64,000 bases of DNA from an uncultured bacterium (GCA_903961015.1 CAJCCX010000061.1:6105-70104), one strand, 5' to 3'; shown: positions 34,669 through 61,617, numbered from the stretch's first letter. Notes: generated from the letters alone by a model not told the origin. A program made the numbers and translations.

Positions 34669-34747
34669 ATGAAAAGGTGCGGTGGACTTTCCAAATTTCT
34701 TCTGCGCAATGAAATGACGAAAGCTTGACTGCCCAAGGGAACAAACC

Positions 34748-37781: not shown

Positions 37782-37788
37782 GAACCCA

Positions 37789-40064: not shown

Positions 40065-40120
40065 ACCGATGCGCAAATCAAGAATCAAACCCAGTATTGA
40101 CCGATAGAAAGAAAGAGAAT

Positions 40121-41950: not shown

Positions 41951-42828
41951 AAACAATTGCTCTGTATAAATCGCTACGCAATTTTTTTGCATTCTTGGTT
42001 GTCGTCCTATCAACCACAACATTCGCTCAAGCACAAGTCTTATCGACTCCACAGGTAAGTGACGAAACAAACCTCGTGATCGCAACTGAAGCTCAGAGTA
42101 AATATGACGAAGCGGCAGCGTTGGTTGTCAACGATCCAGAACATGCACGCGAACTTTTTCGCGAATCAGCCGCAAAATTTCAGCGCATTGTCGATAGCGG
42201 AATATCCAACGGAGAACTCTTTTTCAATCTTGGAAATGCGCTTGTGCAATCCGATGATCTTGGCAGAGCCATTGGTGCGTATCTTGAAGCTCAGCGACTC
42301 TTGCCGGGAGATACACGAATTGAAACGAATCTTGCTCATGCGAGATCTCTGGTCGCAACGCGTGCGACGTCCACTGCAGGAAACGAACCTCTGGATAGAG
42401 TCGCTGCACTTTGGAAGGTCGTCGGTTTTCCAACACGCGTCTGGGCAGCTTTCATTTCATGGACATTGGTTTGGTCCATCATTGTTGTTGGCATTCTCTG
42501 CGGATGGAAAACTCGAGTGCCGTGGCGTCCCATGCTGATGAGTGTCTCTGCGATCTGTATTGGAATTTCTCTGACGGTCGGAGTCGACGCACTTCGTCAA
42601 CAAATCAATCCACTCGGCGTGCTTGTCAAAGATCAGGTTGTTGTGCGCAAGGGCAACGGCGAAGGGTTCGCACCTGCGTTCACTGAACCACTCACTCGTG
42701 GAGCAGAATTCACGATGATTGAAATGCGCCCGGGTTGGTATCGCATTCGATTGGCCGACGGTCAATCAGGATGGGTCAAGACATCTGACGCACAAGTTGC
42801 CGGCGAGTTCGCTCGCGCGAGTGAATAA
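41947..42828 (+). CDS. batE: BatE-like TPR plus SH3b protein
   Basis: Signal peptide, TPR (NLGNALVQSDDLGRAIGAYLEAQRL), TM segments, and a C-terminal SH3b-like GWYRIRLADGQSGWVKTSD. Confidence 0.75.
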   Translation: MKTIALYKSLRNFFAFLVVVLSTTTFAQAQVLSTPQVSDETNLVIATEAQSKYDEAAALVVNDPEHARELFRESAAKFQRIVDSGISNGELFFNLGNALVQSDDLGRAIGAYLEAQRLLPGDTRIETNLAHARSLVATRATSTAGNEPLDRVAALWKVVGFPTRVWAAFISWTLVWSIIVVGILCGWKTRVPWRPMLMSVSAICIGISLTVGVDALRQQINPLGVLVKDQVVVRKGNGEGFAPAFTEPLTRGAEFTMIEMRPGWYRIRLADGQSGWVKTSDAQVAGEFARASE

Positions 42829-44967: not shown

Positions 44968-46800
44968 ATGAAATCAAGTCCGTCAATTCACCACTTTTTC
45001 CGCCGAATGGGGAACGCCCTTCGACTCGGTCAAGATTGGCACGTGCTGATTCTTGCTGCACTGTGTGGGATATCTATCGGAGCACTTGCTTTGGTTTTCA
45101 TCGGAACTATGAACTGGCTTCTGAGACAACTCGGTCAATTTGCATCGCAAGGAACAACTCAGCTTTGGATTGCGATCGCCATGCCGCTCGCTGGTGCAGC
45201 GATTACTGTCATCGTCTTTCGTGTTTTTCCCAGTTCCTTCAAGGGCCATGGCGTCTCGCGTGTCATGCTCGCCGTCCATCGACAAAAATCTGTATTGCCT
45301 CTGAGCCTTGCGCCAAGGCAATGGATTGGATCAACGGCAACGATCAGTTCTGGTGGTTCTGCAGGACCAGAAGGTCCGATCGTGGCAATCGGGTCTGCAA
45401 TTGGTTCATCCTTCGCTTCCTGGCTCGATCTGGATGCAGGGAGAAGAACAACGCTGCTTGGTTGTGGAGCGGCAGCGGGACTTTCAGCTGTCTTCGGCGC
45501 ACCACTCGCTGGCGTTTTCTTCGTGCTCGAAGTCATCCTTCGAGACTTCACTGCGCGAACATTCACGCCAATCGTGATTGCATCCGTGACGGCCGCTGCG
45601 ACGGCTCAAACAATTTTGAAATCTCCAGATCCAATTTTCGGTATCGCGCTCATTCATATCGATCAAAATCCGATGCTCTTGGCGCAGACTCCACAATATG
45701 CATTGCTTGGCTTGATCGCTGGACTTTGTGCCGCAGGTTTCGCAGTTGGCATGAAATCTGCACATCGTGCATTCAACCTTCTTCGTATTCCGTCGCTCGT
45801 AAAGCCTCTTCTTGGCGCTGCGCTGCTTGTCGGATGCGGCGTGACGTGGACATTGCTTCGCCAACAACAATTACCGATGACGACCATCGCAACAAATGCA
45901 GCAGAATTACCGCCATTTTATGGCAATGGATATCAATTGATCGAGAGTCTGCTGCGCGAACCAATCGGAACGGAAACGAGTGCGTTAGTACTCTTTGGCT
46001 CACTTGCTCTGCTCATGATTCTGAAAGCGATCGCCACAGCATTCACGTTGGGTTCTGGTGGTGCGGGTGGACTCTTTGCGCCTGGGCTTGTCATTGGTGC
46101 GATTCTTGGCGCGGCATACAGCGCATTGACGGTTCTGGTGCCTGCGCTGCCGGATGTCTCCCCCACTCATGGAGTTCTGGTGGGAATGGGCGCATTTGTT
46201 GCTGCTGGCGCCCACGCACCGCTTGCAGGTGCTTTTCTTGTCTATGAACTGACTCACTCCTATGCAATTCTCTTGCCGCTTCTGTTGGCAGCTGTGATCG
46301 CAACTGTGGCGGCACGACTGGTCTATCCAAACAGTATTTACACCGCAGAACTTGCCGCGTTCAATATTCGATTAAATTCTGTTGCGGATCATTCAATCTT
46401 GCGAAGCACATTGATTCGAGATCTTTCACTATTGCCTTCTGTGCCAGTACTTGCAAGCGATTCTGCAGAAATGTTGATTGAGATCGGTGAAAGAAAGTCA
46501 GTTCATGATTTTCCTGTCGTCGATAATGAGGGGCGATATCACGGATTCGTCTGCGGCAGCGACGTGCGCTCTGCGCTCGTTTATCGAGATGCGCTTCGAC
46601 TCTTGACGGTTGCTGAACTTGAACGGACAGACTTTGCTCCACTTGAATCCGATGACACGCTCGATACAGCGCTGCAAAGATTTTCACGCCACGAAACACA
46701 AGCGCTTCCTGTGATTGATGCGCAAACTCGAAAGCCGATTGGACTGATCAGCCGCAGCCAAATTATGACTGTCTATAACAGCGCTGTGGGAGAGCAATGA
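44968..46800 (+). CDS. ClC-family chloride channel/antiporter with C-terminal CBS pair
   Basis: 610 aa. GSAGPEGP, GAPLAGVFFVLE and the GAFVAAGAHAPLAGAFLVYELT selectivity-filter regions. Two CBS-like segments follow (FPVVDNEGRYHGFV, LPVIDAQTRKPIGLIS). Confidence 0.9.
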   Translation: MKSSPSIHHFFRRMGNALRLGQDWHVLILAALCGISIGALALVFIGTMNWLLRQLGQFASQGTTQLWIAIAMPLAGAAITVIVFRVFPSSFKGHGVSRVMLAVHRQKSVLPLSLAPRQWIGSTATISSGGSAGPEGPIVAIGSAIGSSFASWLDLDAGRRTTLLGCGAAAGLSAVFGAPLAGVFFVLEVILRDFTARTFTPIVIASVTAAATAQTILKSPDPIFGIALIHIDQNPMLLAQTPQYALLGLIAGLCAAGFAVGMKSAHRAFNLLRIPSLVKPLLGAALLVGCGVTWTLLRQQQLPMTTIATNAAELPPFYGNGYQLIESLLREPIGTETSALVLFGSLALLMILKAIATAFTLGSGGAGGLFAPGLVIGAILGAAYSALTVLVPALPDVSPTHGVLVGMGAFVAAGAHAPLAGAFLVYELTHSYAILLPLLLAAVIATVAARLVYPNSIYTAELAAFNIRLNSVADHSILRSTLIRDLSLLPSVPVLASDSAEMLIEIGERKSVHDFPVVDNEGRYHGFVCGSDVRSALVYRDALRLLTVAELERTDFAPLESDDTLDTALQRFSRHETQALPVIDAQTRKPIGLISRSQIMTVYNSAVGEQ

Positions 46801-47177
46801 AGCCCAGACCACATCGTGCGGGAGCGTCGTTTCGAATCTCTTCCGCTATTGAGTTTGCCAACGTCTTTGCGCGTAAAGCACGGCGTGATCTCGGATGGAT
46901 CATCGTTCACGCTGCCCCCAATGATCTCGGCCGCACACGACTGGGACTTTCGATCGGAACACGCGTTGGAAAAGCAGTTCGGCGCGTTCGAGTCAAGCGA
47001 ATGATTCGAGAGGCATTTCGTTTGGTTCGAAGCGAAATTACACCGGGTATGGATGTAGTCGTCTCTGCAAGATCTCATCCAGATCGACCGCTTGCGGATT
47101 ACAAGCATGCGATCGTGGAAGAATCGAAGCGACTTGCTGTTCAACTGAAATTGAAGGATCCACGCAGGGATGAATGA
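46797..47177 (+). CDS. rnpA: Ribonuclease P protein component
   Basis: 126 aa and basic. FANVFARKARRD, RLGLSIGTRVGKAVRRVRVKRMIREAFR (RNR-type motif). The ATG overlaps the ClC stop as ATGA. Confidence 0.85.
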   Translation: MKPRPHRAGASFRISSAIEFANVFARKARRDLGWIIVHAAPNDLGRTRLGLSIGTRVGKAVRRVRVKRMIREAFRLVRSEITPGMDVVVSARSHPDRPLADYKHAIVEESKRLAVQLKLKDPRRDE

Positions 47178-47186
47178 CTCGTGCAT

Positions 47187-47429
47187 TTATGGAACAGGAT
47201 CTTCGCCGCATCCGCCCCATGGATGACAGCGAGAAAGACGGCGAAGAGTCAGCCATCCCCCGCTCCACGCGCCATGACGAACAAATGCTTCTGTTGCATA
47301 GATCGAACATGAAGGATGAAATCGACATCGGCCTCCAAAGATTGGAGAGAGCACGATTTGATACAAGCGAATCAATACGATGAAAATTCGCGCAAAGAAA
47401 GATGGGCGCGCAAGCGAAGGCGGTGTCAC
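47187..47429 (-). CDS. yidD: Membrane protein insertion efficiency factor YidD
   Basis: LIRLYQIVLSPIFGGRCRFHPSCSIYATEAFVRHGAWSGGWLTLRRLSRCHPWGGCGEDPVP is the YidD signature. The proposed GTG start at 47429 overlaps the FAH stop as GTGA. The longer track ORF (to 47795) overlaps the FAH gene. Confidence 0.8.
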   Translation of the reverse strand: MTPPSLARPSFFARIFIVLIRLYQIVLSPIFGGRCRFHPSCSIYATEAFVRHGAWSGGWLTLRRLSRCHPWGGCGEDPVP

Positions 47430-48139
47430 GGCGCTTCGGTCACGGGGTTTGTCAATGTGCCGACAGATTCGATTGATATCTCCACAACATCTCCATGTTG
47501 CAAGTACCGGGGCGGATTTCGCGCGTGCCCGACACCAGGAGGAGATCCCGTGAGAATAATTGTTCCTTTCAAGAGCGTCATGCCACGTGAAAGATCGCTG
47601 ATCAGTTTGGCAACAGAGAAGATCATGTTGGAAGTTGATGAATCCTGCATCAGTTCTCCAGAAACTCTGGTTTGAATTCGAAGATTCTGCGGGTCTTGTA
47701 CATTGTGTGCAGGAGTGATCTTGCTGAGCGGACAAAATGTATCGAAACTCTTGCCTCGGCTGAATTGTCCGCCTGCTCCTTGATTTTGCCACCATCGTGC
47801 GCTGACATCATTCGCGACTGCGTATCCCTCGACCATTCCAAGAGCATCTGCTTGGGAAACTTCTCGGCAATTCGCGCCAAGAATCACTGCTAATTCGCCT
47901 TCGAAATCGACCTGAGGTCCACCCTCACGGCAAATTGCAGGAATGATGATCGGCTCGCCATCTGAGATCACGCAAGCTGGGTTCTTGAAGAAGACGATCG
48001 GTCGTGTTGGGATAGTCCCACCCATTTCCTTGGCGTGCTCTGCGTAATTTCGACCAATCGCCAAGATTGCTGGTGGCAAGATTGCTGGTGGCAAGATTAC
48101 TAGTGGGATGATGTGCGCTGTCGAAATCTCTTGACTCAT
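47426..48139 (-). CDS. Fumarylacetoacetate hydrolase (FAH) family protein
   Basis: 237 aa. AIGRNYAEHAKEMG, DFEGELAVILG, ANDVSARWWQ and ILTGSPPGVG are motifs of the FAH/2-keto-4-pentenoate hydratase-like fold. Confidence 0.88.
   Translation of the reverse strand: MSQEISTAHIIPLVILPPAILPPAILAIGRNYAEHAKEMGGTIPTRPIVFFKNPACVISDGEPIIIPAICREGGPQVDFEGELAVILGANCREVSQADALGMVEGYAVANDVSARWWQNQGAGGQFSRGKSFDTFCPLSKITPAHNVQDPQNLRIQTRVSGELMQDSSTSNMIFSVAKLISDLSRGMTLLKGTIILTGSPPGVGHARNPPRYLQHGDVVEISIESVGTLTNPVTEAP
48062..48106 (-). repeat. In-frame 15-bp tandem repeat (2 perfect copies plus 1 degenerate) in the 5' end of the FAH gene
   Basis: Plus strand: CAAGATTGCTGGTGG twice (48062-48076, 48077-48091), then CAAGATTACTAGTGG (48092-48106). 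Encodes LVILP-PAILP-PAILA. Confidence 0.9.
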
Positions 48140-50091
48140 TTGATTTCCGCTGTAGAGCGTTTGGAAGTTTCCAACTCAGCTGCACGCTTGGCTGCTTCGG
48201 CGGCCATGGCTTGGCGATAGGGTTCCATTCCTGGTGGTTCTGGAAGTACTTGCGCAAACGGAGCGAGTTTGGAAAGTGGATCCATCGAAAACTCCGCTTC
48301 AAGAGGCGCCTTCACAAGGTCGAAGACCATTCGACGCTCCGGCTCTCCTGCACGATTATAAATCGTCAATCGATCTACAAGTGGTTGAGATGGGTCGATC
48401 AAGACATTCATCAAGACATCTCGCACACTTGTTCGTAGATTTCCGATTAGTGCAGCCATCCGACGCTCTCCGAATTTATTCACAAAGTCTGTCGACTGCG
48501 AACTTTGGAAATATTCTGTCAGATCCCGAGCAAACTTTATTGCGTCCTCAAGCACCTTCGGGCGATCCATCAACAAACCCTCGCGAAAGCCACGAGTCAG
48601 AACAGCATAAACATCGCTCCGAGCAACATCTGGTGCAGCCTCATACTCTGCATACGTAGTCTCTCGGACAAAAGTATCCATAGGCGCCTCGTACTTATTG
48701 TTTGGAATAAGCCCGCCACGACCGAAAAGATTGTCAAGTTTAGTGAGGATTGTTTGCGCACCTTCATAATCGCCAAATCGATACAACTCGCGCACAGCTT
48801 GCGCCATGAAATTTTGATAAAAATCACAGAACGAATCACCTCCACCGCCTCGAGTTCCAAAGTGCTTCCGATAAAGCTCTCCAAAATAGATATCAATTGA
48901 TTTGATCCACCTTGGATCATTGAGCCGAGTCGGATTATCGTTGCTGTACGGGTCATACTGCATCAATCCCGTTCTGGAGAGCGCCTGCATTGCCTGAATA
49001 TTGATGCGGTCGTTATTTAGAATCTTGTAGACATCCTCGACATTCGATGTTCTCTTCGCAGCAGTCGTGGTTCCCTTGCGAGCCCAATAAAAGGCATGAC
49101 TCTGCGGGTGTCTCCAGTCGAATGGCCCAAAGTCTCTGGTGTACTCCCACATAAGAGCTGGGTCCATATTGAAAGATTCGCGGAGGACCTTCTTACGTAA
49201 AAACGGGAGGAAACTTTCAAGCGCGGCCTTCGATTCTGGATTCGCAAAGACCGTATCGAAAGCGAGATAGACAGGGTCATTTTTTCGAAAGGTGGCATCA
49301 AGTTGAAGTATTTTTGCATAACGACTGAATTGGACTGATTGCCAACGACCAAGGTTCATCAAAAAATCTTTGTCAAGTTGAAACCGAAACTTCCTTTCGA
49401 AACTTGAAAGGTTTGCTTTCAATTGATCCACCATGACCTTGACTTCAGGTTTCTTGAGTTCTAACTCCTCGAGTGAATCTGGCGCATCCTTTATCGCAGC
49501 AATCCAAGCAACTCGATCTTGAATCGTTGCTGGGGGTACTCCGAGTAAGAACTGCCATTCACGAGCGAATTCTCGCTTGTAATAAAGGTGTGCATCATCT
49601 GAAACACCATCGACTTTGTGTGAAAGCCAGAATGCAAGTTCCTTGTGCAATACCAAATCGTTCGGGTTGTAACGAAGACCTTCATCTCGAACTAAATCGA
49701 TGCCCGCACGAACCCACTCCCATCGCTCTCCTGGAGTATCTGTCATCACTGAAATGTTGTATGCCATATTGTGGCCTTGAAAAGACCACACTTCGCCGAA
49801 CCGCGGCTGAAGTTTTGTAATCAGAGAAGCATCTTCCATCGCCTCATAAAAGAGGCCCTTTTCCTTCTGCAGATTCGTCTTAATCCATAGATAGTCGACA
49901 ATAATTCCTCTCAGGGCACCGATGGCAGTTCCAAGGGCAACGATGGGTGGTGCGCCATCGATTGAAACATCTGTATAACGCAAGCTATTTTCGTCACTAA
50001 TGCGAAGAATTTTTGGCAACAGCATTTCTGCAAAAGTCACGGAGACAATAGCAAGCACAACGCACACAAGTTGAATAAGGCGATTACGCAT
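48136..50091 (-). CDS. Hypothetical membrane-anchored protein (651 aa)
   Basis: N-terminal TM (LIQLVCVVLAIVSVTF) and a second hydrophobic segment (PPIVALGTAIGALRGIIV), then a large helical-looking domain rich in Trp/Tyr/Phe. I recognise no motif. ATGA overlap with the FAH gene. Confidence 0.6.
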   Translation of the reverse strand: MRNRLIQLVCVVLAIVSVTFAEMLLPKILRISDENSLRYTDVSIDGAPPIVALGTAIGALRGIIVDYLWIKTNLQKEKGLFYEAMEDASLITKLQPRFGEVWSFQGHNMAYNISVMTDTPGERWEWVRAGIDLVRDEGLRYNPNDLVLHKELAFWLSHKVDGVSDDAHLYYKREFAREWQFLLGVPPATIQDRVAWIAAIKDAPDSLEELELKKPEVKVMVDQLKANLSSFERKFRFQLDKDFLMNLGRWQSVQFSRYAKILQLDATFRKNDPVYLAFDTVFANPESKAALESFLPFLRKKVLRESFNMDPALMWEYTRDFGPFDWRHPQSHAFYWARKGTTTAAKRTSNVEDVYKILNNDRINIQAMQALSRTGLMQYDPYSNDNPTRLNDPRWIKSIDIYFGELYRKHFGTRGGGGDSFCDFYQNFMAQAVRELYRFGDYEGAQTILTKLDNLFGRGGLIPNNKYEAPMDTFVRETTYAEYEAAPDVARSDVYAVLTRGFREGLLMDRPKVLEDAIKFARDLTEYFQSSQSTDFVNKFGERRMAALIGNLRTSVRDVLMNVLIDPSQPLVDRLTIYNRAGEPERRMVFDLVKAPLEAEFSMDPLSKLAPFAQVLPEPPGMEPYRQAMAAEAAKRAAELETSKRSTAEIK

Positions 50092-50094
50092 GGA

Positions 50095-52131
50095 TCAGCC
50101 ACCGCCCCCACTGTAGATAGCGATCTCCTTGCGCTTGAAAGCAATGACTCCAATTCCGAAAACTATGAGGCTCCACAGCAACCCAACTTGAGCGATCGAA
50201 CGAATGACGGCACTCCATAAGATTGCGCGTCCATCAACAAGATCTGCGGAGCTGCTCGCGTTCCCAAATGGAGCAAGCATCCAATAGACGAAACCAACGA
50301 TCGTGCGGATTACAAATTCAAAGACGAGAATAAAATAATTCGCATCTGAACTGCTGTAGTAAGTTCCTAAAGACAAAGCAATAAACGAAGAGAGGGAACC
50401 TGCGAGAAAGACGGAAACTGTCAACAAAACTGCGACTGGGAAAGAGAGCACGCTGGCGGCAGCAACACCGAACGCTGAAATGAAAGTCAGCTTCCCAAAG
50501 TCGATCAAGATTGCACGAAAGAGATTGGCTTCGAATCCTCCAACTCGATGGAGAATTTCAAGACCACTCGCATCAAAGTTGATTGATGATTCAGGAAAAT
50601 ACAGCTGCCCATCGCGGGAGAGTCCGCCATTCAAAATCTTAAGTGTTAATTTCCCATCATCCCCAATTGCATCGACGGGGATAGATACAACATTGCGCTG
50701 AACTGGAACGTAATTCACTTGCATCGGCTGATTTTCACCGAATGAAAAAAGCACGGGAAATGTGTCGTGTGAACTGTCGTTCCCGATATGAAAGGAATAC
50801 CGCAAGACTGGCTGAGCTCCTGCTTGCTTTGCAGCAGAAAGCCCAGAAAATTCGTATGTTCGACTCTTGCCAGGCTGGATCGTTCGCTGAGCAGACATAA
50901 ATTCAGTTGTCTTTCTCGTCCGAATTTCACGCGCAATATCTACTTCAGAGCGAATTCCGTCGGCGATCTCTTGCCGCAAGAGCGAGTCCTTCTCTATCTC
51001 ATTGATGACTCCATCACGCAGTTGACCAAGGTCAATCTCTGTGTATGCAGGACGAGCAACTTCGCGAGCAACAAGTACTTGATCCTGAACTGCGGCAAGA
51101 TCTTGTCGATCGATTGCTGAGCGTGTCGTCATCAGCTGTAGATTGAGAAAGACTGCAAGACCTCCTACAAGCAAGATTATTCCATTGAGAATTGACAACC
51201 CGAAAAGTTTGCCCGCGAGGTATTGAAAATGCGAAACAGGTTTGGTCAATACATTCCAAATCTGACGATCACGGATCTCGAATGCAACTGTCGCGCAAGA
51301 TAAAAAAAGCGTGAGGCCGGCTGCCACTACAAACGTCAAACTCATACCACGCGATAGGTATGTCTGAATCTGATATCGAAGTGGTTCACGACGATCTATC
51401 CAAATCGGCAGTAATGGAAGAACAACAAGGAGTACGCCGATGAAGGAGATCGGGATTCTGTTGCGCAGTGCTTCAAGAAGGAGCGTATGCGCGATCCCAA
51501 ACAGTGAGAGTGAAGATCCCAACAAAACGAGCGTAATACGCATCAACAATAGGAATAGAAAGATCAGAAATCCAATCCCCGCAACTCCAACAACAAAATC
51601 GAATTGTGAAGACCACCAAAAAAGCATCATGAATGACACGGTCAAGAGAGCAATCAACGCCAATTGAATACCCATCCCCACCCACACTGCGAGCACACAA
51701 AGAGAAATGATGGCGATCGAACTCAACACAATAGCTTCTGGCCGCTCGATGATGGCGACTGGCGCCCATCGAGGGGCCACTGTAGAGGCGATAAATGATG
51801 AAACAGGGACTACTTGCTCAATTTTCCCGTCCGCGGCGAACAAGTCTGTGGCAACAGATTGAATGCGCGGGCCCCCAATCTCGAGGCCGTTGACAGTGAC
51901 CGTTCCACGCTCGATCAATTGCATTGAAATTGGATTTTTCTCTGCGATGTTTGCCTCAGAAATGACTGTTGCAATTTGCTTTCGCAGTTCAGCGTATTTG
52001 TATGCAGACCAACAAAGCGGGGCCAAAATAGATGCGCCGCAAACAATAAAAACAACCGACAATATAAAACGGTTTCTATTGCTTTCTTGCCAAACAGACA
52101 AGCGCCGCACGAGTTCCAGAATCAGAATCAC
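50095..52131 (-). CDS. Expanded ABC-2-type transporter permease (678 aa)
   Basis: Polytopic. FEIRDRQIWNVLTKPVSHFQYLAGKLFG matches the ABC-2 permease signature region (E-x-x-x-G/Q-T...P-V/I-S-R...GK). About 200 aa of non-hydrophobic insert lies between TM clusters. The GTG start overlaps the ATPase stop (GTGA). Confidence 0.68.
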   Translation of the reverse strand: MILILELVRRLSVWQESNRNRFILSVVFIVCGASILAPLCWSAYKYAELRKQIATVISEANIAEKNPISMQLIERGTVTVNGLEIGGPRIQSVATDLFAADGKIEQVVPVSSFIASTVAPRWAPVAIIERPEAIVLSSIAIISLCVLAVWVGMGIQLALIALLTVSFMMLFWWSSQFDFVVGVAGIGFLIFLFLLLMRITLVLLGSSLSLFGIAHTLLLEALRNRIPISFIGVLLVVLPLLPIWIDRREPLRYQIQTYLSRGMSLTFVVAAGLTLFLSCATVAFEIRDRQIWNVLTKPVSHFQYLAGKLFGLSILNGIILLVGGLAVFLNLQLMTTRSAIDRQDLAAVQDQVLVAREVARPAYTEIDLGQLRDGVINEIEKDSLLRQEIADGIRSEVDIAREIRTRKTTEFMSAQRTIQPGKSRTYEFSGLSAAKQAGAQPVLRYSFHIGNDSSHDTFPVLFSFGENQPMQVNYVPVQRNVVSIPVDAIGDDGKLTLKILNGGLSRDGQLYFPESSINFDASGLEILHRVGGFEANLFRAILIDFGKLTFISAFGVAAASVLSFPVAVLLTVSVFLAGSLSSFIALSLGTYYSSSDANYFILVFEFVIRTIVGFVYWMLAPFGNASSSADLVDGRAILWSAVIRSIAQVGLLWSLIVFGIGVIAFKRKEIAIYSGGGG

Positions 52132-53327
52132 GCCTTCTTCTCTCCATCACCATCCACAAGATCGTCTATGACAGATTTATCCACCACAATCTTCGACGTC
52201 GGCTTCACGGGTTGAACTGGAATCTTTGCGGGGACTGATTTCGCAGTTAAGAGGTCCTCCACCATAGATTTCCCCGCTTCAGAATCAATGAGTTTTTTGG
52301 ACTTCGCTTCTGAAGGAATTGGCGCAGAAACAATGTTGGCAGCCGCTTGTAGTTTTGCAATGACCTCTTGGCTGGATTCGCCCTGCTCATCCACCATAAG
52401 GAAACCCGCCGTTCGTCCTCCTTGATTCGCACCACTTGTCAACGCTTGTTCTGCCCGTGCTTTTTCAACAATCTGGATGAAGAGATCTTCGAGTTTCTGC
52501 CGAGGAGATTCGACACTCTCAATCGCAACACCCTCTTCTTTGCGGATCAGCTCATCAATTTTGGCAATCGTCTCTGGTTTCAGTCTTGGGACACTGATTG
52601 ATGTTCGCTTCGTGTCGCTCAGGAGTTCATTGCCGGTTCCAGATGCGCGAATTTTTCCACCATACAGGATGACCATTCGGTCGCAGACATCTTCGACATC
52701 GGCAAGCAAGTGGGAAGAAAGCAGAATCGTTTTCCCAGATCTTCGAAGATCAAGTAGCAGATCTTTGACTTGCCGCGTTCCGATGGGGTCAAGACCCGAG
52801 GTTGGTTCATCGAGGATCAGGAACTCCGGATCGTTTATCAAAGCTTGAGCCAGTCCGAGACGACGAGTCATCCCCTTGGAAAATTCACCTACAGCACGGC
52901 GTGATGCCCCTTCCAAGCCAACCATTTCTAGAAGTTCGTCTGTCCGCTTCCTACGAATTTTACGGGGGATTCCAAAGAGCTTTCCAAAATAATCAAGCGT
53001 TTCTTGTGGATTCAGAAATCGATACATATACGACTCTTCAGGCAAGTATCCAATCCTTTGCTTGATCGATACATCTGACGGATCGCGGCCAAAGACAGTC
53101 AACCTCCCTTTGCTTTTACGAAGAAGACCTAAGAGCATCTTAATCGTGGTGCTTTTCCCAGAACCATTTGGTCCGAGTAATCCAAAAACCTCATTTGGTC
53201 TGATTTCAAAATCAATCCCATCAACAGCACGCGCTTTATCGCGTAACCAAAAATCACCAAAGACCTTGATCAGTCCTTGGGCTTCGACGATCGGAGCAGC
53301 TGAATTTGAATCAATTGATTTACTCAT
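52128..53327 (-). CDS. ABC transporter ATP-binding protein (ABC-2/DrrA-like) with extended C-terminal tail
   Basis: Walker A GPNGSGKST, Q-loop, signature FSKGMTRRLGLAQAL, Walker B LILDEPTSGLD, H-loop LSSHLL. The roughly 150 aa beyond the NBD include a low-complexity tail. Confidence 0.9.
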   Translation of the reverse strand: MSKSIDSNSAAPIVEAQGLIKVFGDFWLRDKARAVDGIDFEIRPNEVFGLLGPNGSGKSTTIKMLLGLLRKSKGRLTVFGRDPSDVSIKQRIGYLPEESYMYRFLNPQETLDYFGKLFGIPRKIRRKRTDELLEMVGLEGASRRAVGEFSKGMTRRLGLAQALINDPEFLILDEPTSGLDPIGTRQVKDLLLDLRRSGKTILLSSHLLADVEDVCDRMVILYGGKIRASGTGNELLSDTKRTSISVPRLKPETIAKIDELIRKEEGVAIESVESPRQKLEDLFIQIVEKARAEQALTSGANQGGRTAGFLMVDEQGESSQEVIAKLQAAANIVSAPIPSEAKSKKLIDSEAGKSMVEDLLTAKSVPAKIPVQPVKPTSKIVVDKSVIDDLVDGDGEKKA

Positions 53328-53330
53328 AAT

Positions 53331-54773
53331 TTACTGGCGTCCAAATCCTTTGTCACCGCTTTGTTCCAAACGTCGACCGGGGCGATCGATCATGATTTGC
53401 TTACTGCCCAATTGAAAAGATGGAAGATTGGATCCGATCATTGATGCTTCTAACTTCTTTCGAGCAAGTTCTGCATCGCGTCGAATCTGCATCATTTCAG
53501 GCGAACTCTTCACCCGAATGACGTATCGAGCCAACTGAGTAGGAACGGAAAATACTTCCACCTGATTCTGTCGAATCGATTGGCGAACAGCTTCAAGCCA
53601 TAACTGTTGAACAAGTTGACGAGGATTTTCTTTAAAACTCGCTGCGAGACTTTTCAGTCGTCGAGTTTCGGTTGCGAGTGATGCAACCAAACTTGCCTGT
53701 TGAGACTTGGCCTGAATAATGATCCGAGATGCTTCTCCACCGATATCAGGCTCTTGTAAGCGAAGTCCGATCTCTCGAATCAATTTGTCCGATCCCGCTT
53801 GATCTCCAGAAGTCAGGGTTGCTTCATACTGTTGAATCAAAGCGAGAATGGCCGAATAGTTTGGGCCTGCTGCTCCAACAAGTTTTGAATTCGCTTCTTG
53901 GCGAGCACGTTCCAAATTTGTCTTTGCGTCTTCACGAACGGTCTGAACCCGCAGGAGAGCTCCACGAACAGCGAGTGGCGCCGTACGTTCAAGAATCACA
54001 ACAGATCCGACTTGAATACCAACACGAAGTTCGTCGAGGCAAGACTGCATCTTCTGGCGAATATCGAGCGCAGGCGCATCACGTTGTTCGAGAAACTCAG
54101 CCAATGTGTATGTCGCCAATGTCTGCACGACTGATCTCTGCAGGACCGAACGCACGAGTGCATCAGTCTTATCCGCACCAATTTGTGTCAACATTGCTAC
54201 TGGATCGACGATTGAGTATTCCGCAGACAATTGAAGGTGCGCAAGATCTCCATCCGCAGTAATCACAGAACCATCCCGACCCGGGCGAATAGGATCGTTT
54301 TCATCCGCAGAATCCGTTGCCATATCAAATGTCACATCTTTTTGCGCTCGAAACGGCCAAAATGCATCGCGAACTTCAATGCTCTGCTTTTGTTGCATCG
54401 TGCTGAATTCACCAACGGGAAAAGGCCAAAATGGATGAAGCCCAGGCTCAACGATTTCATCGCCAGGCTCGCCTACAACTTGTCCAAAAACCGTCCGAAC
54501 ACCAGTCACGCCTTCAGGTATTGATTGAAAACCAGAGACGAGAAATGTGATCACTAAACCAGCTATAGCGAATTGGAGTAATCGATAGGAAAGTCGAAGA
54601 GCCTCACCCAAACTTTGATTGGCTGGATCCATAGCTTCACGCATTGAAGCTCGATCGTTTCCAGTGGTTCCAATTTCGAGTCGCGCACTCTTCCCAATTC
54701 GATTGGAATGGGAAGAATCTGATTCCTCCTCATTGGAATTGATTGGAGAATTGGATTGATCCTTGCTTGCCAT
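53331..54773 (-). CDS. SPFH/Band-7 protein, HflK-like (480 aa)
   Basis: Start ATG at 54773, 1 nt after the upstream stop. Ser/Glu-rich N-tail, one TM (LLQFAIAGLVITFLVSGF), an SPFH core (IPEGVTGVRTVFGQVVGE, GLHPFWPFPVGEF), and a long helical C-terminus. Confidence 0.8.
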   Translation of the reverse strand: MASKDQSNSPINSNEEESDSSHSNRIGKSARLEIGTTGNDRASMREAMDPANQSLGEALRLSYRLLQFAIAGLVITFLVSGFQSIPEGVTGVRTVFGQVVGEPGDEIVEPGLHPFWPFPVGEFSTMQQKQSIEVRDAFWPFRAQKDVTFDMATDSADENDPIRPGRDGSVITADGDLAHLQLSAEYSIVDPVAMLTQIGADKTDALVRSVLQRSVVQTLATYTLAEFLEQRDAPALDIRQKMQSCLDELRVGIQVGSVVILERTAPLAVRGALLRVQTVREDAKTNLERARQEANSKLVGAAGPNYSAILALIQQYEATLTSGDQAGSDKLIREIGLRLQEPDIGGEASRIIIQAKSQQASLVASLATETRRLKSLAASFKENPRQLVQQLWLEAVRQSIRQNQVEVFSVPTQLARYVIRVKSSPEMMQIRRDAELARKKLEASMIGSNLPSFQLGSKQIMIDRPGRRLEQSGDKGFGRQ

Positions 54774-54774
54774 T

Positions 54775-55731
54775 TCAGTTACTTCCCTTCTCCGAAGGAA
54801 CAACGGGATCAGCATCGACGATGTATGGATTCTTTGGCTTTGGAATTGCACCTGGACCGCCGACTGCCCCCAAATCAAGTAAATGAAATGGTGCACGGTT
54901 GAGATCCGTTACGAATGTGGTACTTCCAGAGAGTGAACTTTTTAATGTATCAAGCCAAGTAAGGAAAATAGCAAGGTCTGATTCCTCCTTCATAAGTTGG
55001 TAATACCGAGTCGACTCTTCATTTCCCAATGCTTCTATTTCGGCTGCCCATTGCGCCGCAAAATTTCGGATCGTGTCCGCAGAACTGGCCGCTTGGCTTT
55101 TAATTGCTTCCGCCTCAGAGTTTCCTTTTGATGCCTCAAGAGTCGCTAAAGTTTGTTGAACTGCCGCCATTCTGCGCAAAACAGCTACGGTTGTCTTTGG
55201 GGGCAAAATGATTTGCGAGATTCCAACACTCACCGGTTCTATACCAACAAGCTTTGTTGAACGAAGGTCGACCAGAATTGCCGACTCGGCTTCTGCGATC
55301 TTGCTTCCTTGCCCGATTAACTCACTGAAACTGTAACCGCCAAGAGAACGAACAGCACCCTGGAGCCGTGTTTCCAAATCTTTTCCAGCTGCTTCTAAAG
55401 ATCCATATGAAACGAAAAATTGCAGAGGGGCATCATTCGATTCTTCGACTCGCCACAATAGATATGCCTGAACAAGGACTTGTTGACCATCTTTAGTCAA
55501 TACTGTCTCGATTGGGCTTTCAATAAATTGAAGTCGTGCATCAAGTTTTGCGACTTGATCAATAAAGAGTGGCGCCTTCAGATGCAAGCCTGGTTCGCGC
55601 TGAATTCCTGTGGGCTTTCCAAATCGCGTGAGTACCGCAATCTCGTGGAAGTTGACCACATAGGTGGTGTTAAAAAGCACAAGCACGATGACGATGATGC
55701 AGGCAATTACAATTGGAATTTTACGAATCAT
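54775..55731 (-). CDS. SPFH/Band-7 protein, HflC-like (318 aa)
   Basis: N-terminal TM, then YVVNFHEIAVLTRFGKPTGIQREPGLHLKAPLFIDQVAKLDARLQ, a typical HflC opening. Coiled-coil region follows. Confidence 0.83.
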   Translation of the reverse strand: MIRKIPIVIACIIVIVLVLFNTTYVVNFHEIAVLTRFGKPTGIQREPGLHLKAPLFIDQVAKLDARLQFIESPIETVLTKDGQQVLVQAYLLWRVEESNDAPLQFFVSYGSLEAAGKDLETRLQGAVRSLGGYSFSELIGQGSKIAEAESAILVDLRSTKLVGIEPVSVGISQIILPPKTTVAVLRRMAAVQQTLATLEASKGNSEAEAIKSQAASSADTIRNFAAQWAAEIEALGNEESTRYYQLMKEESDLAIFLTWLDTLKSSLSGSTTFVTDLNRAPFHLLDLGAVGGPGAIPKPKNPYIVDADPVVPSEKGSN

Positions 55732-55733
55732 TT

Positions 55734-57866
55734 CTATTCCTTTTTCTCGAGGTAGTCGCCTAGATTCAATCCAGGCTCTGGTTGTTCCATCTGGACATCA
55801 AATTCGATACGCGAGGGGTCAATTGCAAGTACATATTTGATACGAGCCGCAGCGAGAGCTCGTGACAAAACTGCCATGATCGCTCTTTCTCGATAAATCT
55901 CGGGTGCAGCTCGATAGGAAGGAGCTTGCCCCAAGACTTCGCTCGCAGTTGCGCGAGCGCTCATCAACATGCTCCAGCGTCGCGCTCTGGCAACGCCAAT
56001 AATGCTGGCAGCCTGTGCACGGGCATCAACAATCATATTTTCAATCGTTGAACGTTTTTGCAATGCCTCCGGAGAATCTTTGCCGTGCTCGCGTTCAATG
56101 TCACGAAGCAAGTTGATGTCGAGCACAACCCGACGGGCTATATCAGGACTTCCGACAAGAGTTGACATCGTCGTGTTGACCAATCGATTTGCCTCGTCAA
56201 CAACTTTCCGAGCGTTTTGAATATCGATGGAGAGCTCTTCGAACATCCCCGCAGGCTCACCTGCTGGGGGACGAAGCACGGGAATCAAAATTCCGACAAC
56301 CTCTACGCCACTTCCACTTCGATCGAATGCCGCTTGAATTCTTTGCTTCAACTGAAGGACAAGCGAATCTCCAGTTGGAGAGAGGACTTGGTCGAGGGTT
56401 CGAGTTGAAAGGTATTGACTGACCTCTCGCAGAGCAAGTGCTCTGAGTGCTCGTTCTCTCATATCAAGAATTGTTCTGCGCGAACGAATATCCCCAGAAA
56501 AATTCAGGTACTCAAGTAATCCATCCTCTTTGACTCGATACTCCAAAACAATATCAGCATCAACGAGTGCAAACTGAGTGACCACTTGAGAAGTATCAGT
56601 AGATTGATCTTTTACAGATAAAGGTGATGAAACACCTAGATATCCCAATTGTTCTTGGGTACGGTCAATCGACTTCGCCAAGACGATGAACGGACGCCGA
56701 CTTGAATCAGGCTCTCCCTCGATCGGCCATAGATTGACCTTGGAAGTTGGCAAGAGTTTAGATCCAAGAACAAGCGATCTGATTTGCCCAACATTAAAGC
56801 GTTCAATTGACTCAAATGGCCATGGCCACTTTAAGACAAGGGAACCATGCGCGATCTCGCCGACAACTTTCCCTCCACGCAATCGCACTGCTTGTTCTCC
56901 TGGCTGCACGACAACAACCATAGACATCAAGATGAGTACCACAATGCCAAGAAGAGACAGTCGCAAGATGCTTCGTAAGAGCAATTGATAGCCCCATGAA
57001 CTCGTAATATCGAAACCGAATTGATAGTTGACGGCTTCATTGATGCTTCGAACGATGGAGTCGGGAGCTGCGGCAAGCCCAAGCAATTTGGAATCGAATG
57101 CAGGGCGTGATAGTTCATTGTGTCGACGAGGGCGATAAATGTTTAGTATGAGATTCAAGAAAATTTCAGCAGCTATGATCGCGAGAAAGATTGCTATTCC
57201 GTATGCAATTCCCTCAAGAACTGCTGGCTTTCGAAAAACTTGAAAAACGATTCCGACTGCAATTGCGAGTAAGACGAGTGCGTTGCCGACCATCGCACCA
57301 GCGCCACCACGCAAATTCTGCCATGCCAACTTTTGAGCCATTCCCGCCACAAATCGGGAGAAAATGAATGAAAAAAGTGCGAGGACAGCGCAAATGGCGA
57401 GCTGCCATCCAAGAAAACCCCCAACTCCAAAGGTCACAGCATTGCCCGCAGTATCGTCGAGTCGGGCCAACCAAGTGATCGTGAAGTATGAAATTCCAGA
57501 CAAAAGGATTGCAACAATTCCACTCATTGTGGGCATGAGCCACTGATGCATAAAGAGCAATCGACGGCTCGCAGCTTGGCTCGGTTCGCGTTCTCCTTCA
57601 AACACGCTCTGATCACCAACTCTTCTTTCATCAATCTCCTCATTTTCCAGCGCTTCTATTCGCTCGAGACCATGTTGATGAAACAGAACAATCAAAGAGA
57701 GCCAGATCAAGACTCCAGTCAGGACATAGACAGATGCCAAGATAAAAGATGAATCACCAGTCACCCTTCCAAAGATGAGCAAAAAGAGACCAAGGGGGAC
57801 CTGAATTGCAAGTCCAAAAACCGAGACACGTGTTGCCTGTTGATATACGAATTGATCTCGATTCAT
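55734..57866 (-). CDS. Polytopic membrane domain fused to an SPFH/Band-7 (HflK-like) domain (710 aa)
   Basis: About 6-7 hydrophobic helices in aa 15-330. Then VVVQPGEQAVRLRGGKVVGEIAHGSLVLKWPWPFESIERF (SPFH start) and a helical C-terminal region. First gene of the operon. Confidence 0.75.
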   Translation of the reverse strand: MNRDQFVYQQATRVSVFGLAIQVPLGLFLLIFGRVTGDSSFILASVYVLTGVLIWLSLIVLFHQHGLERIEALENEEIDERRVGDQSVFEGEREPSQAASRRLLFMHQWLMPTMSGIVAILLSGISYFTITWLARLDDTAGNAVTFGVGGFLGWQLAICAVLALFSFIFSRFVAGMAQKLAWQNLRGGAGAMVGNALVLLAIAVGIVFQVFRKPAVLEGIAYGIAIFLAIIAAEIFLNLILNIYRPRRHNELSRPAFDSKLLGLAAAPDSIVRSINEAVNYQFGFDITSSWGYQLLLRSILRLSLLGIVVLILMSMVVVVQPGEQAVRLRGGKVVGEIAHGSLVLKWPWPFESIERFNVGQIRSLVLGSKLLPTSKVNLWPIEGEPDSSRRPFIVLAKSIDRTQEQLGYLGVSSPLSVKDQSTDTSQVVTQFALVDADIVLEYRVKEDGLLEYLNFSGDIRSRRTILDMRERALRALALREVSQYLSTRTLDQVLSPTGDSLVLQLKQRIQAAFDRSGSGVEVVGILIPVLRPPAGEPAGMFEELSIDIQNARKVVDEANRLVNTTMSTLVGSPDIARRVVLDINLLRDIEREHGKDSPEALQKRSTIENMIVDARAQAASIIGVARARRWSMLMSARATASEVLGQAPSYRAAPEIYRERAIMAVLSRALAAARIKYVLAIDPSRIEFDVQMEQPEPGLNLGDYLEKKE

Positions 57867-58035
57867 CTGTGTCAGGAGTTTACGGTCAAATCAATGATTG
57901 GGTTCGGCATTTCGAACAGGGAATGAACGGATTGAAGTCGCCGGTCAGCCTTAAAAATGAAACGGGCACACGCTGATCAAAGTTCCAATCGATGCAAACA
58001 TTTGGAAGCAATGCGCCGTAGAATCGCTTACCGAT

Positions 58036-59073
58036 ATGGGATTTATTGAACAACTTCTGGCAATCGCCAAAAACACTTTCTTTGAGTGCGTTCGTCAACC
58101 AATTTCGCTTGTCATTTTGATCGCCTCGACACTTCTTGTGCTCATGAGTAATCCGCTTTCCGCATTTACCATGATGGATGATCAGAGGATGTATGTTGAT
58201 ATTGGACTCTCAACTGTTTTTATGTGTGGTGCACTCTTAGCTGCATTTCTGGCAACCGCCGTCGTCAATCAAGAAATTTCAAATCGAACGGTGCTTATGG
58301 TTGTCTCCAAACCCGTCTCGCGAGTGACCTTCATCTTGGGGAAGTACCTCGGAGTTACGCTTGCGTTATTCGCCAGCACTGCTGTTCCTGCACTTGGGTT
58401 TCTTCTCGTAGAAGTTCACGGCGTCCTACAAACGGCTGCTGCTCATGTTCGATGGCCATGCGTAGTCTTTGGCGTTTCGGCGGTTTTCTTGACAATCGGC
58501 TCCGCAACTTGGTGCAATTTTTTCTATGGGAAATCTTTCGCCGCCGTTACGACACTCCTTGGCGGTCCTCTCCTGCTTGTCGCATATGTGCTCAGTTTAT
58601 TCTTTGATTGGAATTGGGCCTCGATTCCTGCCGAAAAGGAGTTCCGTTTCGACTTAGTCCTCTCAATTTTGCTGATGTTCCTTTCTCTAGGAATCATTTC
58701 AGCAATTGCTGTGGCAATCAGTACCCGATTGGGGCAAGTGTTAACAATGGGAATCACCCTTGCGATCTTGGTGCTCGGACTGCTTTCGGACTGGATCTTT
58801 GCCAGAAAAATCTTGGCTCTAGAACAGTTGATTTCCGTGCGCGAGGCTGCGAAGGGAGGTTCACTTGATATGGATCACCTTGCACTCTGGGGTTACAAGG
58901 CGGGATATGCCATACTCCCAAATTTCCAGGTTTTCTGGGTCGTTGACGCTGTCAACCAAGAACAACCCATACCTATGGAATATATTTCTCTTGTCGTTCC
59001 CTACGCCGTACTGATGACGTTTGCAGCACTCGCATTAGCAACTGCGATGTTTCAACGCCGCGAAGTGGGATGA
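58036..59073 (+). CDS. ABC-2-type transporter permease-like membrane protein (345 aa)
   Basis: Polytopic. NQEISNRTVLMVVSKPVSRVTFILGKYLG matches the same ABC-2 signature region as the 678-aa protein. Divergent from the SPFH operon. Confidence 0.65.
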   Translation: MGFIEQLLAIAKNTFFECVRQPISLVILIASTLLVLMSNPLSAFTMMDDQRMYVDIGLSTVFMCGALLAAFLATAVVNQEISNRTVLMVVSKPVSRVTFILGKYLGVTLALFASTAVPALGFLLVEVHGVLQTAAAHVRWPCVVFGVSAVFLTIGSATWCNFFYGKSFAAVTTLLGGPLLLVAYVLSLFFDWNWASIPAEKEFRFDLVLSILLMFLSLGIISAIAVAISTRLGQVLTMGITLAILVLGLLSDWIFARKILALEQLISVREAAKGGSLDMDHLALWGYKAGYAILPNFQVFWVVDAVNQEQPIPMEYISLVVPYAVLMTFAALALATAMFQRREVG

Positions 59074-59079
59074 ACAAAC

Positions 59080-60198
59080 TCAACCGCCTGGCTGTGATCC
59101 AGCTTGCATTTCCTTGATCTGCTTTCGCATCTGAACAATCTCTTCCTTCAATTGTTCGATCGCCTCTTCGCCAATTTGCAAGTCGTAAGTCATTTCTGCT
59201 GGGCACTTCTTGTACCAATCGACGATCTTCTGAGTATTACGAATTCGAGCCTGAAGGAAGGCAACGCCACCCTGACTTGATCCTTCAATCCCGCGCTTTT
59301 GTATGAGAAGAGGGACCTCCTCCTTCGCGCCGTTGATCAGTTTTTGCCATTTTTCTGCGATTTCTTTGCCCGCATTGTTGGCTTCGAATTTCGTCGTGTC
59401 ATTCACTCCAAGTTCGCGATACAAGTCCATCTCCGTTGCAGCAGTTCCATCTGAAAACCCAGAATGCTCTGCGGATTGGGCACTGAAATCGAGGTTCTCT
59501 TTGTTATCGCTCAGTTTAAACTCATGCTTGTAATCATTGTAAAAAGTGACCTTGTCTCCAACTTTGTCGTAAGACAATTCGACTTCGGAGTGAACCATTG
59601 CAGGCCCAATTTTGGGGTCCCTATCGCCTGCAGCGCATGCTTCTGCGACTCGCGATTTCCAGTCTTCACGAGCTGATGTAATTTCTTCACGAGTTGCTCC
59701 ATTGAGCATCGTGATTGAACCCAATGCTGCTTCTGGCATGAAATACATTTCATCGCAATAGAGACCCGTAAATGCACCGCCAGAAATTGCCTTTTCGATC
59801 CAAGCGACAAGCCGATGCTTGTTCTTGATTCGAGTCAAGGTTGCAGCAATCAAATCTCCTTCGGTCACGAGACCACCATTGGAATTGATTCGCAAGACAA
59901 TCACTTGACCAGGCCCGAATGTGTCAGCAATCTTTTCAACTTGCTCCATCTCATCATGACGCAAACCGATTCCAACCATGCCATCTAGCGGAAGCACGAA
60001 AACTTGCTTCTTTGTCTTTTGGATTGGAGCCACGGCCGTTGCAGCAGATTTCGCCCCCGCTTTCGAATCCGACTTTGCAGGAACAGTGCTCCCCGGGCTT
60101 TTCGCTGGAGAAGACTGAGCAAAGAGTTGTGATTGACCAGCTAAAAGAATGCACGCAATGCAAATTTGCTTGAATGGCGAAAGTGAAAGATGTTTCAT
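59080..60198 (-). CDS. Secreted NfeD-N/ClpP-fold serine protease-like protein
   Basis: Start ATG at 60198 (MKHLSLSPFKQICIACILLAGQSQLFA), with GGAG 7 nt upstream. VFVLPLDGMVG ... LRINSNGGLV ... KAISGGAFTGLYCDEMYFMPEAALGS aligns with the NfeD/SppA-type ClpP fold (xxSPGG and the Ser-containing AxSAG motif). Coiled-coil C-terminus. Confidence 0.62.
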   Translation of the reverse strand: MKHLSLSPFKQICIACILLAGQSQLFAQSSPAKSPGSTVPAKSDSKAGAKSAATAVAPIQKTKKQVFVLPLDGMVGIGLRHDEMEQVEKIADTFGPGQVIVLRINSNGGLVTEGDLIAATLTRIKNKHRLVAWIEKAISGGAFTGLYCDEMYFMPEAALGSITMLNGATREEITSAREDWKSRVAEACAAGDRDPKIGPAMVHSEVELSYDKVGDKVTFYNDYKHEFKLSDNKENLDFSAQSAEHSGFSDGTAATEMDLYRELGVNDTTKFEANNAGKEIAEKWQKLINGAKEEVPLLIQKRGIEGSSQGGVAFLQARIRNTQKIVDWYKKCPAEMTYDLQIGEEAIEQLKEEIVQMRKQIKEMQAGSQPGG

Positions 60199-60216
60199 AG
60201 AAAACTCCAAAATTTA

Positions 60217-61521: not shown

Positions 61522-61617
61522 CGCAAGATCATAGCCATAAATCCTCTCAAAACCAATCGTGCCGTTTGGAGTTTTTCTCCATTCGCATGATCAAAAACCT
61601 CAAGGAGCAATTGCCCG

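Follow-up and report, generated by a model that had tools for sequence, protein, structure and literature searches.

The locus analyzed here lies in a 64,000 nucleotide (nt) stretch of DNA from an uncultured bacterium (GCA_903961015.1, CAJCCX010000061.1:6105-70104), referred to below as the window. Eight closely packed genes on the minus strand, named g1 to g8 in the direction of transcription, occupy positions 57866 to 47187, and a divergently oriented gene, u1, is located directly upstream of them. According to an initial annotation, made from the sequence of the window alone, the eight genes form a single coupled operon in which three SPFH paralogues are hard-wired to an ABC-2 exporter, an uncharacterized 651-aa protein, an FAH-family enzyme and YidD. 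The eight open reading frames (ORFs) are indeed all present (Table 1), and the spacings of the seven junctions, recomputed from the sequence, were identical to those reported before: +2, +1, +3, -4 (GTGA), +3, -4 (ATGA) and -4 (GTGA) nt. Genes g3 and g8 are nested in longer ORFs starting at positions 54896 and 47795, respectively, and orthologues support the starts at 54773 and 47429. A possible ninth operon gene, an ORF of 137 amino acids (aa) at 46773-47186 on the minus strand that begins 1 nt past the stop codon of g8, was rejected as a shadow of the plus-strand gene rnpA. Scanning the block with the sigma-70 consensus gave 8 promoter-like sites, against 11.9 expected, and a consensus scan for terminator-like sites gave 12, against 12.5 expected; neither type of site was enriched.

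Table 1. Features of the locus and its surroundings; positions are counted from the first nucleotide of the window.
Feature	Position	Strand	Product and supporting matches
g1	55734..57866	-	710 aa; Band_7/SPFH 29.7 bits (Pfam)
g2	54775..55731	-	318 aa; HflC-type SPFH; Band_7 78.9 bits
g3	53331..54773	-	480 aa; HflK-type SPFH; Band_7 70.5 bits
g4	52128..53327	-	399 aa ABC ATPase; ABC_tran (PF00005) 105.7 bits
g5	50095..52131	-	678 aa putative ABC-2 permease, assigned through orthologues
g6	48136..50091	-	651 aa signature protein; predicted transmembrane anchor and all-alpha solenoid
g7	47426..48139	-	237 aa FAH family; FAA_hydrolase (PF01557) 229.8 bits
g8	47187..47429	-	80 aa YidD; Pfam YidD 96.3 bits
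u1	58036..59073	+	345 aa polytopic ABC-2 permease; ABC2_membrane_2 29.4 bits (cut-off 27.2)
ECF-like motif GAACC-N16-CGTA	57882..57905	-	at -39 from g1 start codon
u2	59080-60210	-	predicted secreted NfeD1b-N / ClpP-fold protein; NfeD1b_N 66.8 bits (cut-off 40)
u3	60217-61521	-	predicted secreted u2 paralogue, NfeD1b-N / ClpP-fold
rnpA	46797..47177	+	RNase P protein; Ribonuclease_P 71.7 bits; context, outside the module
CLC channel gene	44968-46800		upstream of rnpA; Voltage_CLC 271 bits

Most of the domain assignments made previously were recovered with Pfam. All three SPFH candidates exceed the gathering score of Band_7 (PF01145), which is 23.6, and ABC_tran, FAH and YidD were likewise identified directly; only the assignment of g5 as a permease had to be made through its orthologues (see below).

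To determine which of these genes belong together, one genome per GTDB species was scanned for relatives of g6. This yielded 320 stretches. Gene content was analyzed, by tblastn with the window proteins, in the best 80 loci, whose g6 shares 56-98% identity with that of the window. In all 53 loci with enough upstream sequence, genes g1 to g6 are present on the same strand and in the same order, and the conserved block consists of SPFH (~710 aa), SPFH (~320 aa), SPFH (~480 aa), ABC ATPase, ABC-2 permease and a protein of ~650 aa. Gene u1, which the initial annotation had missed, is located divergently and directly upstream of g1 in 51 of 51 related loci. The median gaps across ~50-70 related loci, computed with heuristically assigned start codons, were -4 nt for g2-g3, -4 nt for g4-g5, 3 nt for g5-g6 and 13 nt for g3-g4. 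The tight gene spacing is not peculiar to the window genome but is conserved across related loci. A search of gene neighborhoods, one of the checks proposed with the initial annotation, thus shows that polytopic SPFH, HflC-like, HflK-like and ABC-2 genes do co-occur and that their adjacency is not unique to this genome.

The same block was found at much greater distance. A HMMER search of 1.84 billion cluster representatives retrieved 2122 relatives of g6, 649 of them at E <= 1e-30. The named homologues come almost exclusively from Phycisphaerales, Phycisphaeraceae, Phycisphaerae or metagenome-assembled genomes labelled 'Planctomycetota'; the g6 of strain ZRK34 groups with that of Poriferisphaera and other Phycisphaerales, though its record is labelled 'Planctomycetales'. 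The window itself comes from a freshwater planctomycete that resembles Phycisphaerales. Six distant loci with a g6 that is 28-35% identical were studied (L081, L085, L086, C-DL7hL5 and, from complete genomes, L087 of Poriferisphaera sp. WC338 and L088 of strain ZRK34). All six contain the series SPFH (~700 aa), SPFH (~320 aa), SPFH (~480 aa), ABC_tran, permease and g6-like protein, and a divergent u1 is present upstream in five of them (L081, L085, L087, L088 and C-DL7hL5). All other flanking genes differ; the positions of FAH and yidD, both of which are missing from all six loci, are instead occupied by LAB_N, LMWPc, aldose epimerase or VWA/ExbBD genes. The contig of locus L082 shows only ABC ATPase, permease and g6, and stops there. 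Locus L084, considered as a possible version lacking SPFH genes, was dismissed when tblastn revealed that its contig is cut off within a g3 homologue, of which the C-terminal part is present. The SPFH trio accompanies g6 in every locus that contains enough upstream sequence to judge. The linkage of three SPFH paralogues to an ABC-2 transporter, as originally noted, is therefore a conserved one: it is kept in all 53 related loci that could be judged and in all six distant ones. Because the block persists in the distant loci while the other flanks change, the evolutionary unit is not the eight-gene block but a seven-gene set composed of u1 and g1 to g6, and these seven genes very probably constitute one functional unit. 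This membrane module is found throughout Phycisphaerae, a class of planctomycetes.

What, then, is the status of g7 and g8? All eight genes, including those for FAH and YidD, could form one hard-wired system in which YidD aids the insertion of the module's membrane proteins. The 4-nt overlaps at g6/g7 and g7/g8 fit this idea, as does the situation in the clade of the window (g6 identity >= 56%), where FAH lies directly downstream on the same strand in 71 of 71 loci and yidD shares the strand of the operon in 48 of 68. However, besides being absent together with FAH from all distant clusters, yidD is found within 200 nt of rnpA in 68 of 68 loci, and in the remaining 20 of the 68 it is on the strand opposite to the operon. 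In these 20 loci the CLC gene, rnpA and yidD are co-directional, with the canonical rnpA-yidD arrangement, and converge on FAH. We therefore consider an eight-gene system very unlikely. YidD itself is unambiguous (PF01809, 96.3 bits against a cut-off of 27; TIGR00278, 81.5 against 40), but, since rnpA always adjoins yidD and 20 of 68 loci keep the canonical direction, it is an inverted neighbor derived from the rnpA unit and not a component of the module. In the window, the start of rnpA overlaps the stop of the CLC channel gene (ATGA, 46797-46800), and the stop codons of the convergent rnpA and yidD genes are separated by 9 nt. The simplest history is a local inversion in the lineage of the window that placed yidD on the operon strand; no mechanism is visible around the inverted gene, where only short imperfect pairs turned up when flanking inverted repeats were looked for. 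FAH, in turn, is a passenger acquired in the clade of the window, and not a component of the module either, even if g7 is probably co-transcribed with the module in the window. The score of g7 is below every NCBIfam equivalog cut-off, and no specific activity is assigned to it. The g6/g7 ATGA overlap depends on the assigned start codon of g7, which is putative, and the N-terminus of g7 (48050-48139) contains a short tandem duplication, ILPPAILPPAIL, ahead of the Pfam domain.

We next consider the SPFH trio. The best relative of g2 in PDB is E. coli HflC (7.6e-21), and the orthologue profiles of g3 and g1 match E. coli HflK at 2.6e-27 and 3.5e-18, respectively. Moreover, hhalign aligned residues 300-691 of g1 with residues 65-421 of g3 over 349 columns with a probability of 99.8% (E 1.7e-27), an alignment that covers the transmembrane helix, the SPFH domain and the coiled-coil C-terminus. 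Judged by these profile comparisons, the trio consists of HflK-type, HflC-type and HflK-type paralogues, g1 being the second HflK-type protein. The description of g1 as a polytopic SPFH fusion holds in so far as it has seven predicted transmembrane segments and an SPFH domain; it does not represent a separate kind of SPFH protein, since the hhalign comparison identifies it as an HflK-type paralogue. In NCBIfam, g2 scores 102.5 bits with TIGR01932 (hflC; cut-off 134.4), and g1 and g3 score 48.2 and 73.3 bits with TIGR01933 (hflK; cut-off 159.4). Because none of the three reaches the equivalog cut-off, the trio is best described as HflK/C-like rather than as demonstrable orthologues.

By hydropathy analysis, g1 is predicted to have seven transmembrane segments, and g2 and g3 a single one each. 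Thus, g3 would consist of a cytoplasmic tail of ~60 aa, one transmembrane helix, an SPFH domain and a coiled coil, and g1 of seven N-terminal transmembrane helices, an HflK-type SPFH domain and a coiled-coil C-terminus. The loops of g1 contain 18 Lys/Arg residues on the predicted inside versus 4 on the outside. Hydropathy and the positive-inside rule together place the SPFH and coiled-coil parts of all three proteins, by prediction, in the periplasm, as in E. coli HflK/HflC. The N-terminal domain of g1 with its seven helices (residues 1-315, window positions 56922-57866) is well conserved, especially a cytoplasmic loop (PDSIVRSINEAVNYQFGFDITSSWGYQ); the cytoplasmic loop before the last transmembrane helix of g1 (NYQFGFDITSSWGYQ) is strongly conserved. 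Neither the domain nor this loop has a relative in Pfam or PDB. Pfam gave no significant match either for the C-termini of g1 and g3, the N-terminal extension and loop of g5, or the tail of g4.

These features raise the possibility that the trio represents the housekeeping FtsH regulators HflK and HflC of Phycisphaerae plus an extra paralogue, and that the ABC genes and g6 are unrelated to it and have stayed adjacent by operon inertia. The cage would in that case surround FtsH and not the transporter. After all, the closest solved relatives of g1 to g3 are HflK and HflC from the FtsH-HflKC complex, their best NCBIfam matches are hflK and hflC, and their predicted orientation and architecture resemble those of HflK/C. 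Mere inertia is difficult to reconcile, however, with a linkage of SPFH, ABC and g6 genes that persists at 28-35% g6 identity when all flanks have changed, with the presence of the trio alongside g6 wherever upstream sequence suffices, and with the short g3-g4 gap, which is 3 nt in the window and has a median of 13 nt across loci. In addition, ftsH was found neither in the window nor in any flank examined, and the scores of the trio are well under the hflK and hflC cut-offs. We regard this explanation, the main rival of the favored one, as unlikely.

Gene g4 encodes the ATPase of the module. The Walker A, signature, Walker B and H-loop motifs can be read in its translation (GPNGSGKST, FSKGM, ILDEPTSGLD and SSH, respectively). 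The protein is closest to the DrrA/GldA/NodI class; its best NCBIfam matches are drrA, RbbA and GldA, and all remain under their cut-offs (drrA, 219.6 versus 312.45; GldA, 182 versus 402.6; NodI, 159.7 versus 521; LptB, 140.1 versus 240). Its C-terminal tail of ~140 aa is poorly conserved. As for g5, 39 of 47 orthologues match ABC2_membrane_2 at E <= 0.01 (best 9e-9), and orthologues carry the annotation 'ABC transporter permease' or, in several cases from JGI, are named a permease component of an 'ABC-type transport system involved in multi-copper enzyme maturation'. Furthermore, residues 210-314 of g5 are 32% identical to residues 7-109 of u1 (E 3e-5), which makes u1 a distant paralogue of g5. 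On the basis of the orthologue matches, the orthologue annotations and the similarity to u1, g5 is provisionally assigned to the ABC-2 permease family (PF12679 and relatives). The AlphaFold2 model of g5 (predicted local distance difference test score, pLDDT, 86) contains an N-terminal extension of four transmembrane helices with a small periplasmic domain, followed by the ABC-2 core, and a periplasmic insert of ~200 aa, composed of helices and a beta-sandwich, between core transmembrane helices 3 and 4. In Foldseek searches the modelled beta-sandwich showed a weak likeness to carbohydrate-binding domains of CBM35/36 and BcsB (E >= 9e-3), with TM-scores of 0.42-0.49 relative to isolated carbohydrate-binding modules (CBMs), which would be a hint of glycan binding. 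Gene u1 lacks a dedicated ATPase gene, and g4 is the sole neighboring ATPase. For this reason u1 is a candidate second transmembrane subunit, and the transporter may be built from a g4 dimer and two different permeases, g5 and u1.

Of all the genes in the module, g6 is conserved best, with a median identity of 61.6% over the 80 loci, against 37% for g5. It has no match in Pfam, NCBIfam or PADLOC, and a sequence-profile search of PDB returned only designed helical bundles (E > 0.3). Thus, g6 represents a large protein family for which neither Pfam nor NCBIfam has a model. Its AlphaFold2 model is all-helical (pLDDT 87) and matched only generic tetratricopeptide repeat (TPR) solenoids when compared with PDB by Foldseek (TM-score about 0.13). 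A few relatives carry PF13428; the g6 of the window itself has no Pfam TPR match. No support was obtained for g6 being a polysaccharide lyase or hydrolase of the (alpha/alpha)-toroid type, as Foldseek gave generic TPR folds only. Positions that do not vary in an alignment of 67 diverse members are for the most part polar or aromatic (W69, W102, N112, S114, E122, N142, D325, R327, Y335 and R362), and these residues look more like those of a binding or catalytic site than those of a passive scaffold. The protein has a clear N-terminal transmembrane helix and its bulk is probably periplasmic.

The composition of the ABC part allows yet another explanation. NosFY acts as a mechanotransducer on NosD, as seen in the NosDFY structures. 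By analogy, the system might be a mechanotransducer instead of an exporter, in which g4 would use ATP hydrolysis to move g5 and u1, and the periplasmic g6 solenoid would thereby do conformational work on a periplasmic or outer-membrane target. The NosY-type annotation and the ABC2_membrane_2 matches of the g5 orthologues point in this direction, as does the fact that g6 is an obligatory and highly conserved accessory protein with a single anchor. On the other hand, g6 is all-alpha and has no similarity to the beta-helix protein NosD, and the evidence is equally compatible with transport; we consider the mechanotransducer model quite unlikely. The module resembles both NosDFY and GldAFG in combining an ATPase of the DrrA/GldA class with ABC2_membrane_2 (NosY/GldF) permeases and a conserved accessory protein in one operon. 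It differs from them in that the accessory protein, an all-alpha solenoid, corresponds neither to the NosD beta-helix nor to a GldG-type protein, and in that there are two different permeases, of which g5 has a large periplasmic insert and an extension of four transmembrane helices. Pfam detected no GldG-type auxiliary domain in the proteins of the block or its flanks.

Comparison with other systems places the module further. The capsule exporter KpsMT-KpsE is an ABC-2 transporter ringed by a periplasmic oligomeric co-polymerase. Its concept, an ABC-2 exporter within a membrane-anchored periplasmic oligomer, is similar, and a glycan would be a possible substrate of the present module, given the weak CBM-like match of g5; its surrounding proteins are SPFH proteins, however, and not polysaccharide co-polymerases, and its conserved neighbors include no genes for glycosyltransferases or outer-membrane secretins. 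With the E. coli HflK/HflC-FtsH cage (PDB 7VHP, 7WI3 and 9CZ1) the trio has in common an N-terminal anchor and predicted periplasm-facing SPFH and coiled-coil parts, as well as, for each gene, a translationally coupled neighbor; g1 and g2 are in the canonical hflK-then-hflC order. In contrast to E. coli, there are three paralogues instead of two, one of which has an N-terminal domain of seven transmembrane helices, and the linkage is to an ABC transporter and not to hflX/hfq or ftsH. Three SPFH genes in one operon are also known from Pseudomonas aeruginosa, PaFlo5-PaFlo6-PaFlo7 (PMC13086221); the likeness to g1-g3 is one of gene count, and that paper contains no mention of 'ABC' or 'transporter'. 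A stomatin cage encloses the transport proteins AQP1 and UT-B (PMC12407830), but stomatin faces the cytoplasm and its clients are not co-encoded. No description of a module combining SPFH and ABC(-2) proteins, of the proteins encoded here, or of Phycisphaerae SPFH proteins, was found in the literature searched, which agrees with the earlier statement that the arrangement does not correspond to any described system. The kinds of component are known; their combination, the fusion of seven transmembrane helices to an HflK-type protein and the g6 family are, as far as these searches went, new.

Taking all of this into account, we favor the view that the module encodes an ABC-2 machine that acts on the envelope and is coupled to a cage or scaffold of HflK/C type, and estimate its probability at about 0.6. 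In this model, the three SPFH proteins would jointly build a ring or cage, similar to that of HflK/C, at the outer side of the cytoplasmic membrane. As in the HflK/C-FtsH and stomatin cages, this assembly might delimit a membrane patch containing the ABC machine (the g4 dimer, g5 and u1). Powered by ATP hydrolysis, the machine would either export or extract some component of the envelope or bring about a mechanical change, and the g6 solenoid and the beta-sandwich that g5 is predicted to expose to the periplasm could act as receivers of an exported component. The SPFH cage might in addition have FtsH as a client, which would be compatible with this model. The separate parts of the proposal differ in strength. 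That the SPFH proteins and the transporter physically associate, a notion that derives from analogy, is given slightly less than even odds. It is possible, but on balance doubtful, that the whole is a class-specific apparatus for envelope biogenesis or export, with a dedicated periplasmic cage of three paralogues, one of them the seven-helix fusion, whose client is not a protease but the ABC-2 machine together with an enzyme-like g6. As for the substrate, an envelope glycan or glycolipid would be the leading guess, on weak grounds and with a low probability. The earlier proposal of a cage-scaffolded membrane module thus survives as the most reasonable reading of a conserved linkage, now with FAH and YidD excluded and with the association of cage and transporter put forward as conjecture.

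Several observations weigh against a cage coupled to a transporter. First, with scores below the HflK and HflC equivalog cut-offs, the trio can be called HflK/C-like at most; conversely, g2 and g3 may be the ordinary HflC and HflK of the class, acting on FtsH. Second, g5 itself has no match in Pfam or NCBIfam, and for its modelled membrane part Foldseek returned neither a solved ABC-2 transporter nor LptF/G. The CBM-like match of g5 is weak, and the beta-sandwich is a common fold. Third, a second hydrophobic helix of g6 (residues 48-70) has a hydropathy of 1.68 in the window protein and ~1.0 across the family; if it spans the membrane, the solenoid would be cytoplasmic. Finally, the distant locus L086 is without a divergent u1.

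Upstream of u1 are two further genes that escaped the initial annotation, u2 and u3, whose NfeD-like products are 24% identical over 346 aa (E 6e-10) and both have signal-peptide-like N-termini. A putative NfeD-type partner of the SPFH proteins is therefore encoded nearby, and the pairing of SPFH with NfeD proteins would not be absent here. In SPFH-NfeD pairs such as PH1511/PH1510 (PMC2636767) the two partners share an operon; two NfeD1b-N/ClpP-fold genes are present just upstream of the module in the window and related clades. Unlike in those pairs, u2 and u3 are predicted to be secreted and soluble, no C-terminal NfeD membrane/OB-fold part was detected in them, and the divergent u1 separates them from g1. 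Homologues of u2 are found upstream in many loci, only in the nearer clades, and are not kept in the distant modules. The two proteins may serve the SPFH trio as protease partners in the periplasm, and their predicted secretion is consistent with periplasm-facing SPFH domains.

The motif GAACC-N16-CGTA upstream of g1 occupies an identical position in the window and in the 10 loci closest to it, where the remainder of the intergenic region cannot be aligned; it is also found in the distant locus L086 and not in other clades. It resembles a promoter of the extracytoplasmic function (ECF) sigma type, which we mention as a lead only. As a promoter it would leave a leader of only ~8 nt.

The remaining genes of the window are core genes (rplA, rpoB, rpoC, a branched-chain amino-acid ABC importer, lpxB, aspS, purD and sucC), and a search with Rfam over the window gave two tRNAs only. 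G+C content is about 0.475 over positions 48001-62000 and about 0.50-0.52 in most of the window, with no signs of mobile elements. This slight dip over 48-62 kb (about 0.475 versus about 0.51), together with generic ABC-ATPase matches of g4 to PADLOC models, would be the grounds for regarding the locus as a mobile anti-phage defense or accessory island. No other protein gave a defense-specific match in PADLOC, though, there is no integrase and no border tRNA, the surroundings are housekeeping genes (rpoB, rpoC, aspS, purD, lpxB), and the module is conserved vertically throughout the class at a fixed chromosomal neighborhood, so that an island is effectively excluded. Positions 33577-42828 on the plus strand contain a complete operon of the 'aerotolerance' type, MoxR-DUF58-(unknown)-BatA-BatB-TPR-BatD-TPR/SH3. 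In the distant loci L084 and L088, VWA, ExbB-ExbD and TPR genes directly follow the module and may be a remnant of an older neighborhood. A 508-aa protein with a C-terminal type I dockerin is encoded at 42973-44499 on the minus strand and is kept near the module in many related loci.

Structures of SPFH cages (HflK/C, prohibitin, flotillin, stomatin, erlin) are being determined at a rapid pace, but which clients they hold, and for what reason, is largely an open question, and such clients are almost never encoded beside the cage. The genome analyzed here names a candidate, as the ABC-2 machine and g6 are encoded in a coupled operon with the SPFH trio, an arrangement conserved class-wide. If a dedicated cage does have the ABC-2 machine as its client, this would be the first SPFH cage that is genetically hard-wired to a transporter. 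The role of an SPFH cage for its client becomes testable in this system, and cultured strains with complete genomes, Poriferisphaera sp. WC338 and ZRK34, are available for this purpose.

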